Source of the DNA: Escherichia phage Ecwhy_1
Sequence record: MH791411.1
Reading direction: 5' to 3' (one strand)
Length of the DNA: 64,000 nucleotides
Position 1 is the first letter of the stretch. Each line of letters starts with the position of its first letter. A program made the translations under genes and the position numbers. The notes below the pieces were generated by a model. It was not told the DNA's origin. It saw only the letters and a list, made by a program, of their open reading frames with translations, and did not search any database. Shown here in pieces: positions 3,941 to 56,480 of the stretch.

Positions 3941-4164
3941 GATTTTATTCCTTAATATACCAGGGAGAACCATTCCCCCTCTCGATATAAAACATTATAC
4001 TTGATTCTAAGTACAATGCAAGTACTTTTTTAAAAATAGTTTTCAGTACTGAATACTTATATAATAGATACACTTCCGCACCCTATGGGTCAGTGAGTTA
4101 TCTCTCAATGGATATATAATAGCAAAGGGACTGACCGGAGTCAATCCCTTTTTTTAATCTTTTT

Positions 4165-4749
4165 TTATCGTGTTACCTTACTTGCTGCCACATCACGCTT
4201 TTTATAGTACTGATTCCAGATATTGCTGGTTAAACCGTAATCAAGTACTTTAATAAGTCCATTACGATCCTGGCCGATATTCTGTTTTCTGATATCTCTT
4301 ATCGTTAGTGTTGATAATGTATCATCAACGTGTTGTAGTGCATCAGCAAAGCGGTGCTGGCGTTCGATTGCATTACGTTTAATATTGTACTTTAATTCAT
4401 TGCACGCGTTTACGTGCTTCACACTGCCTTTGCTTGCAGTACTCAACCGATCCATAACGATAAACATATTATCAGGATCGCATAAATGCATATGCACCTT
4501 TGCAAAGTACTGTTTCAATTGAGGGCGGTCATAGTCTAAAAAATTCCATACCTTACATTCAGTTTCATTTTGTTCTACACCCGCATCACAATTCGCGACC
4601 TTAATCACTAACCGATCATTTAAAGCGAAAACTATACGGGAAGAACCAGCACCGATGATCTCCAGGCCAGCTAACCGACAAGCTGAAAGGATCTCTTTGT
4701 TGGTTTCCATTTCTGACAGTGTACGGATGAATTTAGTATAATTACGCAT
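4165..4749 (-). CDS. protein kinase-like protein (194 aa)
   Basis: Trimmed to MRNYTKF start with SD AAGGAG; motifs IGAGSSRIV (Gly loop), VIKV (Lys), DIRKQN (catalytic-loop-like), DYG (DFG-like). Confidence 0.5.
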   Translation of the reverse strand: MRNYTKFIRTLSEMETNKEILSACRLAGLEIIGAGSSRIVFALNDRLVIKVANCDAGVEQNETECKVWNFLDYDRPQLKQYFAKVHMHLCDPDNMFIVMDRLSTASKGSVKHVNACNELKYNIKRNAIERQHRFADALQHVDDTLSTLTIRDIRKQNIGQDRNGLIKVLDYGLTSNIWNQYYKKRDVAASKVTR

Positions 4750-4780
4750 TGCATGTTCTCCTTGAGTTAATGAAACTATA

Positions 4781-5023
4781 TTACAGTACTTTACTATCAA
4801 TGGCAACTACTTTTTTAACATTAACGGCGTGGATCACTTCCTTCGTGTTTTTAGTACTGAATACTTTCGCCGCTCCTTGTTCGACCGTGATACGATAGCG
4901 ACCATTAACATCAACCATATTAATAAAGTCCGGCGTGCTGAATGGTGTTGTTTTACATTTGAGTACTGTTAACAGTTCCACCAGCGATGTAGTTTCTTTG
5001 ATACGTTTTTCTAAAGTAATCAT
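4781..5023 (-). CDS. hypothetical protein (80 aa)
   Basis: Trimmed to MITLEK start; TTGACA-N17-TACTAT and SD GGGGGAAAC upstream. Confidence 0.55.
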   Translation of the reverse strand: MITLEKRIKETTSLVELLTVLKCKTTPFSTPDFINMVDVNGRYRITVEQGAAKVFSTKNTKEVIHAVNVKKVVAIDSKVL

Positions 5024-5080
5024 TTTGTTTCCCCCGTGTTGGTATGTACATATAGTACTAAAACATTTGAGTACTGTCAA

Positions 5081-5299
5081 TTAGATAATATTATATTTCT
5101 TAAAATAAAATGCGTCCTGTGTTGGTTGATACTCGATACCGTTACCGTTATTGACTTCAACTAATAAACCTTTGTCAATTAGTTTTTTAATAGTACGATA
5201 CCCTTGTTGAAAATTGGTAAAATGTGAATCATTACGAAAGGTATAACCGTGCTTAACTGCTTCATCAATAGTTTTCTTTTCGATTTTAGATAATTTCAT
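5081..5299 (-). CDS. hypothetical protein (72 aa)
   Basis: Trimmed to MKLSKI start; promoter/leader near-identical to that of 4781-5023. Confidence 0.55.
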   Translation of the reverse strand: MKLSKIEKKTIDEAVKHGYTFRNDSHFTNFQQGYRTIKKLIDKGLLVEVNNGNGIEYQPTQDAFYFKKYNII

Positions 5300-5352
5300 T
5301 TTGTTTCTCCCGTGTTGGTATGTGTACATAGTACTAAAACAATTGAGTACTG

Positions 5353-5607
5353 TCAACGTGATATTAGTTTTATTTTCTTATTGTATTGTTGATGCTCATA
5401 AAGGTTTATCTTTCCTGTGTTCTCGATTACTATCCTGTTGTTAGTGTCCACGTCGATTACACGCAGTTTCCCGTTGCTTAACTTCCTAGGTAATAGGTTA
5501 CCATTAATAAACTCATTAGCAAGCTGTACGGCCTTTGTGATGATTCTCTGAGGTGCTTTATAGTGTACCCGTAAGATGTTATCTTTATATAGTTGAACCT
5601 TAATCAT
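5353..5607 (-). CDS. hypothetical protein (84 aa)
   Basis: ORF; SD AGGA; follows an intrinsic terminator. Confidence 0.55.
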   Translation of the reverse strand: MIKVQLYKDNILRVHYKAPQRIITKAVQLANEFINGNLLPRKLSNGKLRVIDVDTNNRIVIENTGKINLYEHQQYNKKIKLISR

Positions 5608-45450: not shown

Positions 45451-45517
45451 TTCGTTATCCTCATCAATTGATGAAATAATTATAGCAAAAAGGGCTGACC
45501 TAAGTCAACCCTTTTGT

Positions 45518-47090: not shown

Positions 47091-47210
47091 GTATTGCCTC
47101 TTGAGATGATGAAATAATTATAGCAAAAAGGGCTGACCTAAGTCAACCCTGTTTTAAAGTTTTTTTAATATGTTGATAACGACGGTATGTATTCACCATC
47201 TGTCATCATT

Positions 47211-48379: not shown

Positions 48380-48895
48380 TTAATAATTATTCATTTCATC
48401 TTTGATTTGTTCTTCAATTTCGTCGAACATATCAGTACTAGATTCTATATTACTACTTACGTCCTGCATATCTTTAACGTACTGTGGGCGTTCAACGTCA
48501 GTAAATTTATACCACATAGGCTTCATATGGAGCTTCTCAATCAAACGCTCACGAGACATTTTAATCTCTGACTCCGATGGTACGTAGTCATTACAAAACT
48601 CAGCAGGGAAGCCGCTAATGTCGTTTACTTCAGTGTTTTGAATCTTCATCCCACGACGCAAACATTCGTTAACAATATCAATATGACGCTTCTGTAAGTA
48701 CAATAACTTGTTGTAGAAGAATGTTACATGACCTGAACCTAACAGGTAAGTACTGTTAATTTTGAAATCACGGACTCGCTTACGTGCTTGAACATGTTTT
48801 TGTACAGCACCAAACACACGTGGGAGTTCACGATATTCAGCCATCAGATGTTGGTCAGCAAGTTCTTTAACGTGTACTAAGTTAATGCGTGTCAT
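48380..48895 (-). CDS. denV: pyrimidine dimer DNA glycosylase (T4 endonuclease V homolog), 171 aa
   Basis: N-terminal ~130 aa aligns from memory to T4 DenV ([42 protein letters not shown]); acidic C-terminal extension; SD GAGAGGATG. Confidence 0.85.
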
Positions 48896-48936
48896 GTATT
48901 CATCCTCTCGTTTCGATGAAATGATTATAGCAAAAA

Positions 48937-48956
48937 GGGCTGACCGAAGTCAACCC
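48937..48956 (-). terminator. terminator hairpin carrying the -35 of the next promoter (example; 8 copies between 45491 and 60069)
   Basis: - strand GGGTTGACTTCGGTCAGCCC + TTTTTGCTATAAT: stem contains TTGACT, T-run runs into TATAAT. Confidence 0.55.
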
Positions 48957-49237
48957 GTTTTGAAAGGATTTTTTAATGGTTTTCGTACTGTATGTATTTT
49001 GCTTTGTAGTTCTTCTTCCCACAAAACATTTATATTATAAACTAAATCATTGTAGTCACTGTTCACAAAGATAAAATCATACTTCTCATTAAAAGTATGA
49101 GAAATCAATTGCATTTTCATAAGTATTATTGAACTTTTAAATTTATATGTTTCTTTTTCTTCTCCAGTTTTTGAACTTTGTATATTTTTTATAAATTCCA
49201 TGAATTCATCATTGGTCATTGTTTCAGCATCCAACAA
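48950..49237 (-). CDS. hypothetical protein (95 aa)
   Basis: ORF; weak SD. Confidence 0.45.
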   Translation of the reverse strand: MLDAETMTNDEFMEFIKNIQSSKTGEEKETYKFKSSIILMKMQLISHTFNEKYDFIFVNSDYNDLVYNINVLWEEELQSKIHTVRKPLKNPFKTG

Positions 49238-49496
49238 TACCCAACTTCACAATCTCATACCCATCCAAATATCCATATGAACACTCAGGCGTTTCATAAG
49301 ATGAACCATCATGGATGCCCTGGCATTGACTTTTGGAATTCTCAAGCAATCGTTGCAGTACTGATACGTCATCAAGAACGTAATACAAGTTAGCATATAG
49401 GTCCGTTACAATACAGTACTCCAACATGTCAAATGTATCAATCGAAATTTCAACCTTAGCAAATTGTTTCTTTTCTTTATTATACAGTGCGTACAT
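49224..49496 (-). CDS. hypothetical protein (90 aa)
   Basis: Trimmed to MYALYNK start with SD GGAG. Confidence 0.5.
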   Translation of the reverse strand: MYALYNKEKKQFAKVEISIDTFDMLEYCIVTDLYANLYYVLDDVSVLQRLLENSKSQCQGIHDGSSYETPECSYGYLDGYEIVKLGIVGC

Positions 49497-49497
49497 A

Positions 49498-49869
49498 TTA
49501 ATCTCCATAATCAAGTTTAACTAACTTACCACCCAGATACCCAAAGTTTTCTGGCTTCGCATCTGAATAGAAGAAGTCAGTACTCAACTCTGAATCCAAT
49601 GCTAAAGCACACAACTCCACCCAAAATAAACCCCTATGTTGTACTGGCTTACAACGTTTCTGTACAGTTACTAGTCCAGTACATGATGACCACAACGTAG
49701 GGCAGATACCACTATCACTACGCTTGGAGTACTGCATCCAAGAACGTTCATTGAGGTTAGCTATCATCCCTGTTAAGAATAGCTTCCAACTTTTAAAGGT
49801 TGGAATCTTGATAGCATATTCCCCAATGAGTATGACAGTTCGTGTTGCACCTTTCAAATCTATATTCAT
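49498..49869 (-). CDS. short kinase-like protein (123 aa)
   Basis: Motifs EYAIKIP (Lys), DAKPENFG (catalytic-loop-like), KLDYGD (DFG-like), ending right after DYG; no clear SD. Confidence 0.45.
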   Translation of the reverse strand: MNIDLKGATRTVILIGEYAIKIPTFKSWKLFLTGMIANLNERSWMQYSKRSDSGICPTLWSSCTGLVTVQKRCKPVQHRGLFWVELCALALDSELSTDFFYSDAKPENFGYLGGKLVKLDYGD

Positions 49870-50901: not shown

Positions 50902-50977
50902 GACAATTCCTCGATTGTGGGGATGAGAAGTTCATCCCCTTGATAAACATTATACAGTACTGAATGAGTTTGTCAAC

Positions 50978-52670: not shown

Positions 52671-52973
52671 CTACATATATTCTAAGAATAATGTATTAGC
52701 TTCGTCTATGTTCTTAAGATAATACATGTAATACAGATTTGGTTGTCCGTCTTTTGAACTCAAATCAAAGTACTTTAAACTATGCACCTTCATGACAAAA
52801 ACAAATAATGACTTAAAACCAATCTCACCGTACTTAATAAACAGTTCATCTAAATGAATGTAACTCTTAGTTTCAGATAATTCCTTCACATCAGCTTCAA
52901 TTTCTTGTAAGCGAAGTTTACCGATTAAGTTTTCAAATGAACGCATGATGTTGTTCCTTATGCTGGTACACAA
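52671..52973 (-). CDS. hypothetical protein (100 aa)
   Basis: ORF. Confidence 0.5.
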   Translation of the reverse strand: MCTSIRNNIMRSFENLIGKLRLQEIEADVKELSETKSYIHLDELFIKYGEIGFKSLFVFVMKVHSLKYFDLSSKDGQPNLYYMYYLKNIDEANTLFLEYM

Positions 52974-53371
52974 TTTTTTATAATGAATACACGTTTCATG
53001 AATGAACTTTCATATACGTACTTCAGTTTACCATTTTCACGCATACGATGAAACACATCTTTACCACTAGTACTCCATGTTGAACCAGTCTCTGCATCAA
53101 CATTGTTCATTACACCAGATGTTACGTTCACCCCGTACTTGAAGCTAAAGGTACTGCCTTCTTCTACTAGAGGGATTGGTGTACTACGTTCATGTTCCAG
53201 TACAAGTTTACTGCCGATGATGTTGTACGAAGTTAGCTTGCATTTTAAAACACCCATCTCTTGTGCAGTTGGGTAATTCTTCTCAAATAAATCAGATACT
53301 TCATTTGCATAACAAACTGAACTAATCATAAGAAGTAATGAACTGATAGAACGGAAAATAACTTTTAACAT
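52958..53371 (-). CDS. secreted protein (137 aa), predicted signal peptide
   Basis: N-terminus MLKVIFRSISSLLLMISSVCYA; SD GGAGGCAAAC. Confidence 0.6.
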   Translation of the reverse strand: MLKVIFRSISSLLLMISSVCYANEVSDLFEKNYPTAQEMGVLKCKLTSYNIIGSKLVLEHERSTPIPLVEEGSTFSFKYGVNVTSGVMNNVDAETGSTWSTSGKDVFHRMRENGKLKYVYESSFMKRVFIIKNCVPA

Positions 53372-53437
53372 GTTTGCCTCCAGTAGTTGATGAAATGATT
53401 ATAGCAAAAAGGGCCGACCGAAGTCAACCCTTTTCTT

Positions 53438-53788
53438 TTATATTTTACATGTCATGTCTGGTTTTGGCTTTTCATTCTTTGGCTTTTCAAATGGATTTGG
53501 CTTAGGGGACTTTTTATCTTTGTCATCTTTAGCTTTCTTTTTGTTTTCTTTTTTATCCGATTTGTCAGCTTTGTCTTTCTTATCTTTTGAATCTTTGTCA
53601 GCTTTAGATTGTGGTTCCTCACATACAGCAGTTTTTGGCTCCGGCATATCACATGAGTTATCCACAGGTTTAATGAACTCTTTACAGTTGTAGAAGTATA
53701 AACTTTCATTGGTAGTAAGATTGTGGAATCTAAAAGTATTTTCACCATTAGTATATACTTTCTTAGTACTCTCAATATCATTACACAT
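53438..53788 (-). CDS. hypothetical protein with Lys/Asp-rich low-complexity tail
   Basis: Track ORF begins at a GTG; first ATG used here; alternative frame 53452-53802 is also open. Confidence 0.35.
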   Translation of the reverse strand: MCNDIESTKKVYTNGENTFRFHNLTTNESLYFYNCKEFIKPVDNSCDMPEPKTAVCEEPQSKADKDSKDKKDKADKSDKKENKKKAKDDKDKKSPKPNPFEKPKNEKPKPDMTCKI

Positions 53789-53798
53789 TGCAACCGTG

Positions 53799-54050
53799 TC
53801 ACCGGAATTCACGCTCGATACCTAGTATATCCGACTTACGTTCAGATAGTATTCCAGACGTATATCGATCTTTGTTATCAAATGCATTGAACCCTATAGT
53901 TTTATAATTGTCATGTACCAATCCTCTAGTGTAAGACTTGGTATAGAACTCACCGTTTCTAAACTCCTGTCTAGCAATGGAGCACTGGTATTCAGTACTA
54001 TAAACTATATCAGTAAACAATACAAGTGAAAATAAAACATATTTAAACAT
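53799..54050 (-). CDS. secreted protein (83 aa), predicted signal peptide
   Basis: N-terminus MFKYVLFSLVLFTDIVYS; SD AGAGGTAATG. Confidence 0.55.
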   Translation of the reverse strand: MFKYVLFSLVLFTDIVYSTEYQCSIARQEFRNGEFYTKSYTRGLVHDNYKTIGFNAFDNKDRYTSGILSERKSDILGIEREFR

Positions 54051-56271: not shown

Positions 56272-56480
56272 GATATCCCTTATTTGGTTTGTTCAAAACT
56301 AGGTGTATTGATATAGGTGTCAATTGAATAACATACTGTACCCACTACAACAGCAGCGATTAGGGCAGCGATGATGAATTTAGTACCTTGCATAATTTAA
56401 TACCTCACGTTGTTTGTATTTTGTATCACTTGATGAAAATATTATACGACAAAGGGCTGACTGAAGTCAACCCCTTTTAA

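Follow-up and report, generated by a model that had tools for sequence, protein, structure and literature searches.

The T7 kinase gp0.7 (T7K) disarms many bacterial defences by promiscuous, pervasive phosphorylation, and distant homologues have been reported in the jumbo phages Munch and G17; in a search of the BASEL collection, T7-like phages and P1 were the only ones in which kinases turned up, and in the T7K family D-P-(V) stands in place of the DFG motif (PMC13645617). Two other described systems come close in architecture. OspG is a 196-amino-acid "half kinase" made of subdomains I-VII that becomes active once ubiquitin binds (PMC3585378), and ArkI is an enzyme of the ePK superfamily that lacks subdomain VIII and binds tRNA by a basic surface (PMC9095486). 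Here we describe two open reading frames, ORF1 (194 amino acids) and ORF2 (123 amino acids), in a 64,000-nucleotide stretch of Escherichia phage Ecwhy_1 (MH791411.1; hereafter the window). Profile comparisons place the two proteins as distant paralogues within one large phage-borne half-kinase family, PHROG 4301, whose conservation pattern fits an active phosphotransferase and not a pseudokinase or a truncation artefact.

A first-pass annotation had recognized two short kinase-like proteins here. Translation at the exact coordinates bore out both reading frames, placing them on the minus strand, which that annotation left unstated, and bore out the kinase order of the motifs it quoted, an order that, judged from the family and profile matches given below, is far beyond chance. 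The positions of these motifs, taken from the translations, are as follows.

4165..4749, minus strand: ORF1, long-form half-kinase, 194 amino acids from its ATG, stop codon at 4165-4167
4630..4653, minus strand: ORF1 glycine-rich loop GAGSSRIV (G33-V40)
4597..4608, minus strand: ORF1 beta3 motif VIKV with K50, the predicted ATP-binding Lys
4558-4560, minus strand: ORF1 alphaC Glu, E64
4279..4296, minus strand: ORF1 catalytic loop DIRKQN (D152...N157)
4234..4242, minus strand: ORF1 DYG, the DFG equivalent (D170-G172)
49498..49869, minus strand: ORF2, short-form half-kinase, 123 amino acids, subdomains I-VII only, stop codon at 49498-49500
49834..49851, minus strand: ORF2 remnant of the glycine-rich loop, GATRTV (G7, R10 and V12 near-invariant family-wide)
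49807..49809, minus strand: ORF2 beta3 Lys, K21, within AIKIP
49747-49749, minus strand: ORF2 alphaC Glu, E41
49546..49563, minus strand: ORF2 catalytic loop DAKPEN (D103-N108), which fits the Ser/Thr-kinase signature D-x-K-P-E-N
49504..49512, minus strand: ORF2 DYG, the DFG equivalent (D120)

ORF1 is preceded by an AAGGAG ribosome-binding site 5 nt upstream of its ATG and is laid out as N-terminal helices (residues 4-26), kinase subdomains I-VII (residues ~29-172) and a short C-terminal helix with a tail (173-194); an invariant Arg, R38, replaces the third Gly of GxGxxG. The earlier statement that both proteins end just after the DFG-like motif holds for ORF2, in which DYG is followed by one Asp and then the stop, but not for ORF1, which runs 22 residues past DYG, including a helix predicted by AlphaFold2 at 175-182. 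The closing GGAGAT codons of ORF2 double as the Shine-Dalgarno sequence of the next gene, whose ATG (at 49496) lies one base past the ORF2 stop. The supposed lack of a C-lobe is similarly true in part. Everything after subdomain VII is gone (activation segment, APE motif, alphaF to alphaI), but alphaE, the catalytic loop, beta7-beta8 and the DFG motif are retained in both proteins.

AlphaFold2 models built on a 53-sequence alignment, together with Foldseek searches, returned a kinase-like fold, the outcome that the first-pass annotation had staked its proposal on. The ORF2 model (predicted local distance difference test score, pLDDT, 92.7; predicted template-modelling score, pTM, 0.81) has an N-lobe of beta1-beta3, with K21 in beta3, a long alphaC (28-43, carrying E41), beta4 and beta5, followed by alphaE (79-92), a short helix, the catalytic loop D103-N108, beta7, beta8 and D120-Y-G-D-stop. 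These elements correspond to Hanks subdomains I-VII, with nothing further. The ORF1 model (pLDDT 94.4, pTM 0.90) adds to this set the two N-terminal helices, an extra helix between the hinge and alphaE, and the C-terminal helix. Foldseek aligned ORF1 with APH(2''), MEK1, OSR1 and Lpg2603 in the PDB (E ~2e-4). In the BFVD its top matches were phage proteins of RaK2, PBECO4 ("Protein kinase domain-containing protein"), CBB and RP12, with T7K-family kinases ranking next (E ~3e-6 to 4e-5, TMq ~0.55). Both proteins thus have the features that define the protein-kinase-like (PKL) superfamily fold, namely a five-stranded N-lobe sheet, alphaC, hinge, alphaE, catalytic loop and beta7-beta8, and they carry its conserved ATP/Mg catalytic residues (beta3 Lys, alphaC Glu, catalytic-loop Asp/Asn, DFG Asp). 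Neither has subdomains VIII-XI of a canonical ePK (APE activation segment, alphaF Asp, alphaH-alphaI Arg). Compared with canonical Ser/Thr kinases (PF00069), they lack the parts beyond DFG and the His-Arg of HRD, and they have the invariant Arg in place of the third Gly.

Sequence searches point in the same direction, more clearly for profiles than for single sequences. ORF1 alone gave weak phmmer matches to MKK4, PknB-like kinases, PKC and PKA at the catalytic loop and DFG, and an 11-sequence profile of its subfamily (A2) aligned with MKK4/MKK7 from the glycine-rich loop to just past DFG (query residues 29-182, E 1.5e-4 to 4e-4). A 14-sequence ORF2 profile found no match among PDB sequences. 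A 141-sequence short-form profile gave marginal matches to TTK/Mps1 and MAP3K8 at alphaE, the catalytic loop and DFG (E 0.014-0.37, with TTK at E 0.014), and all of its matches were protein kinases except for one weak DNA-primase match (E 0.13). Weak Pkinase matches were seen in 16 of 53 members (best E 0.003) and weak ABC1 matches in seven of the 53, none above threshold. NCBIfam gave no matches, and in PADLOC the only similarity was a weak, generic one between ORF1 and the PD-T4-6 kinase.

The kinship of the two proteins is evident at the level of the family. The PHROG of unknown function phrog_4301 matches ORF1 (E 1.8e-41, residues 3-188) and ORF2 (E 1.8e-43, residues 2-122), as well as Munch_046, an ORF1 homologue annotated as "putative protein kinase" (E 2.4e-25). 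Compared directly by BLASTP, ORF1 and ORF2 align only across the catalytic-loop and DYG region (E 0.011), and when the 141-sequence short-form profile is compared with the ORF1-subfamily profile the alignment spans 113 columns from the glycine-rich loop to D-Y-G (hhalign probability 96.6%, E 5.3e-10). A hidden Markov model (HMM) search of all six-frame ORFs in the window revealed no third member. An exhaustive profile search of 1.84 billion representatives, clustered at 50% identity, recovered 2,120 family representatives at E<=1e-3 and 666 at E<=1e-10.

Truncation is a property of this family as a whole. Its members are mostly 110-150 amino acids long, with the profile match reaching the last residue, and close ORF2 homologues are all 118-127 amino acids, terminate in D-[YF]-G plus one residue, and share 45-67% identity across unrelated phages. 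We examined 198 family proteins, 192 of which are single-domain. Of the latter, 120 stop no more than two residues from the profile end; an excess of 3-10 residues is seen in 16, one of 11-40 (the ORF1-like long form) in 50, and one above 40 in six. The 150 best of these 2,120 representatives include no full-length (>250 amino acids) single-domain kinase, apart from proteins with several tandem copies and a few members carrying unrelated extensions. Because the short length is conserved, most single-domain members end where the profile ends and the family runs to 2,120 representatives, we regard the truncation as ancestral rather than as decay. Truncated copies do occur in some Asteriusviruses (SD-1_S14, 102 amino acids; TH47, partial; PBECO4 L7TKF0, 147 amino acids).

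The tandem proteins are a curiosity in their own right. Five metagenomic proteins (P0066, P0111, P0112, P0113 and P0130) of 638-969 amino acids, on contigs of up to 185 kb, are composed of 3-5 tandem ORF1-type modules of ~200 amino acids, each with an intact glycine-rich loop, VxK, QNxxE and LDYG. One of them was automatically named 'Bud32' by JGI. Such arrays of minimal kinases within one polypeptide are unusual.

The active site is strongly constrained. In 195 family sequences (ORF2 numbering), G7 is conserved in 187, R10 in 192, V12 in 188, K21 in 193, G34 in 186, N38 in 190 and E41 in 194. R72 is found in 162 (with Lys in 28 more), D103 in 159 (Glu in 33), K105 in 126 and N108 in 156 (Ser in 31), while G110 is kept in 192, D120 in 194, Y121 in 168 (Phe in 19) and the Gly of D-Y-G in 175. 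Together these positions comprise everything that an active kinase uses to bind ATP and Mg and to supply the catalytic base, along with several family-specific invariants, and the catalytic loop of the short form has the D-x-K-P-E-N signature of Ser/Thr kinases. Near-invariance of the catalytic set argues against both pseudokinases and pseudogene fragments, and the pseudokinase option left open by the first-pass annotation is unlikely on these counts. The family is also basic, with a median isoelectric point (pI) of 9.1-9.5.

How does this family relate to T7K? Kinship of ORF1 with T7K was suspected because of a similar 'AG(L/F)xxxGxG...VIKV' start and the reported homologue in G17. T7K-family kinases (PHROG 2828/15752) are phage-encoded, early-expressed, short kinase domains that stop ~15-30 residues past a DFG-like motif, and they resemble ORF1 in that start and in an N-terminal helical extension. 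They differ in the Mg-binding motif, which is D-P-V in T7K and D-Y-G in the ORF1/ORF2 family, and unlike T7K neither ORF1 nor ORF2 has a C-terminal shut-off or DNA-binding domain. Neither protein matched phrog_2828 or phrog_15752 at E<=0.1, nor did Munch_046, and HMM and phmmer comparisons of these three with T7K and 121Q gp205 produced no meaningful score. The profile A4 reached E 0.07 against T7K by hhalign, over 30 columns only, and hmmsearch scores were at most 3.8 bits. A T7K query recovered gene 205 of phage 121Q (tblastn E 8e-3), a 224-amino-acid protein with "ITDP" at the DFG place that, as a positive control, matches phrog_15752 (1e-98) and T7K (3e-12). We therefore reject ORF1 and ORF2 as T7K homologues; gene 205 of 121Q is the real T7K counterpart in Asteriusviruses, and they have no detectable sequence similarity to it.

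Gene 205 itself is absent from the syntenic site in the window (52960-53679; compare 121Q NC_025447 104129-105531, locus L004 3668-5070). There, 121Q has ~1.4 kb (the end of gene 203, then genes 204 and 205) where the window has ~0.7 kb of unrelated DNA. Encoded in this substitute are a 137-amino-acid protein whose N-terminus resembles a signal peptide (52958-53371, minus strand), and the Lys-rich tail of 53438-53812. The number of kinase families thus varies among Asteriusviruses.

The likeness to OspG and NleH is one of architecture and not of membership: subdomains I-VII only, with catalytic residues kept. No sequence relationship with OspG, NleH or HopBF1 was detected in any search. Those effectors leave the bacterium by type III secretion and work inside eukaryotic cells, where their cofactors are eukaryotic too (ubiquitin or E2~Ub, HSP90); ORF1 and ORF2, by contrast, are phage proteins that would act in bacteria. 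ORF2 is, moreover, ~70 residues shorter than OspG and lacks the C-terminal helix on which ubiquitin binding by OspG depends. ArkI/Ark1 (AQ578 family) likewise has no sequence similarity to ORF1 or ORF2, is of archaeal or bacterial housekeeping rather than phage origin, and retains subdomains IX and XI, whose YKR helix binds RNA; these are absent in ORF1 and ORF2.

Megablast of the ORF1 and ORF2 regions identified ~35-39 jumbo coliphage genomes of 326-386 kb with 95-99% identity, among them fEgEco12, G17, 121Q, PBECO4, phAPEC6, BF17 and Sharanji. By these matches the window, with a G+C content of 30-41%, is Asteriusvirus-type jumbo phage DNA of the PBECO4/121Q/G17 group. The family extends well beyond this group. 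Short-form genes were found in 117 phage records that include Asteriusviruses, T4-like Tequatrovirus and Dhakavirus (with BASEL phage Bas45 among them), a 145-kb coliphage, a Felix-O1-sized Salmonella phage, jumbo phages of Erwinia, Klebsiella, Aeromonas and Ralstonia, and 58-kb Pseudomonas siphoviruses. Long-form genes were found in 59 records, most of them from RaK2-like or Asteriusvirus-type jumbo phages, and further members are present in Vequintavirus-like phages, phiKZ-like jumbo phages and lambdoid prophages.

Genomic surroundings vary greatly, with members found in accessory, moron or anti-defence-rich stretches. In a Salmonella lambdoid prophage the short form occupies a moron slot, with lysis genes on one side and terminase Nu1 on the other; elsewhere members lie in an accessory region with a Tad2-like gene or in a stretch between nrd genes. 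The short-form gene and the beginning of an RNA ligase gene overlap in Dhakavirus NC-G, and in Tequatrovirus Bas45 (Escherichia phage PaulHMueller, locus L012) the homologue bas45_0262 (126 amino acids, 41% identity to ORF2) sits between ipI and a tRNA cluster. The latter gene was overlooked, since the T7K study reported BASEL kinases only in T7-like phages and P1. No neighbour gene is shared across six unrelated genomes, and the family gene is therefore best described as a stand-alone module. The local operon partners all belong to PHROGs of unknown function, and the downstream neighbour of ORF2 is phrog_8563. Supply of a C-lobe in trans from a conserved neighbour was considered and rejected on this absence of a shared gene and on the character of the local partners.

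Parts of the family have been annotated before. A few GenBank records name ORF1 orthologues "serine/threonine-protein kinase PRP4", "PknA" or "protein kinase domain-containing protein", and one paper notes the type as "protein kinase, function unknown" (WNN14351.1 is an ORF1 orthologue). The family as a whole is labelled "hypothetical protein" almost throughout, and for ORF2-type proteins two Erwinia phage records are the exceptions. Our literature search found no paper on the family, its truncated architecture, the short form or experiments with it. The ORF1 type is already flagged as a kinase; what is undescribed in the literature found is the widespread ~120-residue form that ends at DFG.

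ORF1 is the last gene of a short transcription unit with sigma-70-like sites upstream and a hairpin cassette downstream, and ORF2 lies within a tightly packed run of genes. Promoters in the window were called by consensus scan only.

4778..4806, minus strand: weak sigma-70-like site, TTGCCA-17-TAATAT, 9/12, directly upstream of ORF1
5052-5080 and 5328-5356, minus strand: stronger sigma-70-like sites, 10/12, further upstream of ORF1
4124..4151, minus strand: variant copy of a putative hairpin terminator and promoter-like cassette, closing the ORF1 unit
50949..50976, minus strand: perfect sigma-70 consensus, TTGACA-16-TATAAT, 12/12, heading the ORF2 gene run
48923..48957, minus strand: putative hairpin terminator and promoter cassette, closing the ORF2 operon

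These promoter and operon features suggest that both genes would be expressed early, by host RNA polymerase. The unit immediately downstream of the ORF2 operon opens with a pyrimidine-dimer glycosylase gene of the T4 endonuclease V (DenV) type (48380-48895, minus strand; phrog_1183, E 4.5e-58).

The cassette is a repeated element. Copies of this ~35-bp intergenic sequence, GGGTTGAC-TTCG-GTCAGCCC-TTTTTGCTATAAT, stand on the minus strand at 45478-45512, 47116-47150, 48923-48957, 53397-53431 and 56440-56474, with the variant at 4124-4151; five matches were found in the window against none expected by chance, and the copies also appear as short blastn repeats. Each forms a G+C-rich hairpin with a -35-like TTGACT in its 5' arm, followed by a T-run and a TATAAT ~17 nt downstream, an arrangement suggestive of an intrinsic terminator merged with a sigma-70 promoter. 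A second repeat lies upstream of ORF1, where two adjacent small genes (4781-5356, minus strand) have near-identical in-frame upstream extensions, MTVL[KN]CFST..YQHG.NKM. Both extensions correspond to a duplicated leader, at 5080 and 5356, consisting of a promoter (TTGACA-17-TACTAT) and a ribosome-binding site. Megablast of the 4781-5356 region finds up to 12 places per related genome, which indicates that the leader is dispersed through the genome.

Orthologues of ORF1, which itself falls within ~1-21000 of the window, lie inside the Asteriusvirus direct terminal repeat (DTR) of ~21 kb (vB_Ec-M-J, DTR 1-21525; fEgEco12, DTR 20,993 bp) and are present twice in records holding both terminal repeats. 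In the window, the sign of the G+C skew flips near 21-22 kb and 41-42 kb, marking changes in transcription direction, and the first switch may coincide with the terminal repeat boundary.

We hypothesize that ORF1 and ORF2 are active half-kinases, likely phosphorylating proteins and needing a bound target or cofactor, that serve host takeover or counter-defence; we would give this reading as a whole an even chance of being correct. Under this hypothesis, both would be ATP-dependent phosphotransferases, most likely Ser/Thr protein kinases, probably made early from host-type promoters and modifying host or phage proteins by analogy with T7 gp0.7. With the activation segment, P+1 loop and alphaF-alphaI missing, substrate recognition, and probably stabilization of the active conformation, would have to come from elsewhere. 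Most likely the proteins would gain both by engaging their target or a host cofactor, much as OspG relies on ubiquitin or E2~Ub; self-association is an alternative.

Several observations weigh against this hypothesis. The alphaF helix is regarded as the organizing scaffold of kinase cores, and a protein of 123 amino acids that lacks it may fail to position substrates or to stay stable by itself; AlphaFold2 confidence is no proof of a stable monomer. The Pfam Pkinase (PF00069) match to ORF1 falls below the gathering cut-off (E 0.004, 17.0 vs 31.7 bits), as does a further match to PK_Tyr_Ser-Thr, and ORF2 alone has no Pfam or PDB-sequence match. The catalytic loop of the long form has no conserved Lys at D+2. 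The promoter calls are consensus matches, and the ORF2 region had fewer such sites than shuffled sequence. Truncated copies in some Asteriusviruses mean that the genes are dispensable, and our literature search found no activity, substrate or expression data for any member. Finally, the basic pI, the structural likeness to the RNA kinases ArkI/Ark1, and the RNA ligase or tRNA-cluster neighbours in two T4-like phages fit a nucleic-acid substrate equally as well as a protein.

This last point leads to the alternative that we take most seriously, although we think it unlikely: active kinases whose substrate is not a protein but RNA or tRNA (2'-OH or 5'-OH, as for ArkI), a nucleotide or second messenger, or a small molecule. 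Such enzymes could shield phage or host tRNA from anticodon nucleases or inactivate a defence signal. ArkI provides a precedent as a tRNA-binding member of the ePK superfamily without subdomain VIII (PMC9095486). The basic character of the family and its neighbours in NC-G and Bas45 are in keeping with this, and a non-protein substrate is structurally easier because there is no peptide-binding activation segment or P+1 loop. These RNA-related neighbourhoods are not conserved, however, with unrelated neighbours in the window, in lambdoid prophages and on other contigs. ArkI's subdomains IX and XI with the YKR helix are missing, and the PDB sequence searches showed no similarity to ArkI, APH or choline kinase. 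APH and choline-kinase enzymes typically have HxDxxxxN without Lys, whereas the D-x-K-P-E-N loop of the short form is the signature of Ser/Thr protein kinases.

Quite improbable, in our judgement, is that the proteins are non-catalytic ATP- or nucleotide-binding modules, acting as scaffolds, sponges or inhibitors that bind a host protein or sequester a nucleotide. This would account for the missing substrate-binding half and alphaF scaffold, and phage inhibitors and sponges, too, are typically small and plentiful in accessory regions (one homologue adjoins a Tad2-like gene); the replacement of the catalytic Asp by Glu in 33 of 195 sequences and of the Asn by Ser in 31 could be read the same way. 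Pseudokinases characteristically lose one or more catalytic residues, however, and here the whole catalytic set is near-invariant, beyond the residues that bind ATP, which is hard to explain without catalysis. OspG, of the same architecture, is a real kinase (PMC3585378). That the short length is an artefact, either of decaying fragments or of a split kinase completed by frameshift or assembly with a downstream product, seems to us barely credible. The position of the next ATG, one base past the ORF2 stop, and the truncated Asteriusvirus copies could be taken as hints of it. Yet the length of 118-127 amino acids and the end one residue after D-Y-G are conserved across unrelated phages, 120 of 192 single-domain members end within two residues of the D-Y-G motif, and the search for a full-length single-domain relative came up empty among the best 150 representatives. 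The catalytic residues are strongly constrained, and the downstream neighbour varies from lineage to lineage (for example phrog_8563 here, RNA ligase in NC-G, terminase Nu1 in prophages) and contains no kinase C-lobe motifs. We reject a pseudogene or frameshift origin because the truncated length is conserved.

Returning to active half-kinases, a bolder version of that hypothesis, which we offer tentatively and with more doubt than belief, is that the ~120-residue short form is a self-sufficient active kinase and constitutes a second, far more widespread phage kinase system beside T7K. The short form would then work with neither alphaF nor C-lobe elements for substrate binding, would complete its active site or specificity by docking on its target or by dimerizing, and would serve phages of diverse lineages as a small, portable phosphorylating weapon against host defence or RNA-based immunity.

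If active, the short form would be the smallest protein-kinase-fold enzyme known, at ~120 residues versus 196 for OspG and 173-216 for ArkI, and would show that catalysis is possible without a C-lobe scaffold centred on alphaF. Such tiny ATP-binding modules could, in that case, serve as engineering scaffolds. Tractable models exist in E. coli phages, for example BASEL phage Bas45. The family is far more widespread than the kinases of the BASEL-based T7K study, and thus represents a large untapped reservoir of candidate phage kinases.

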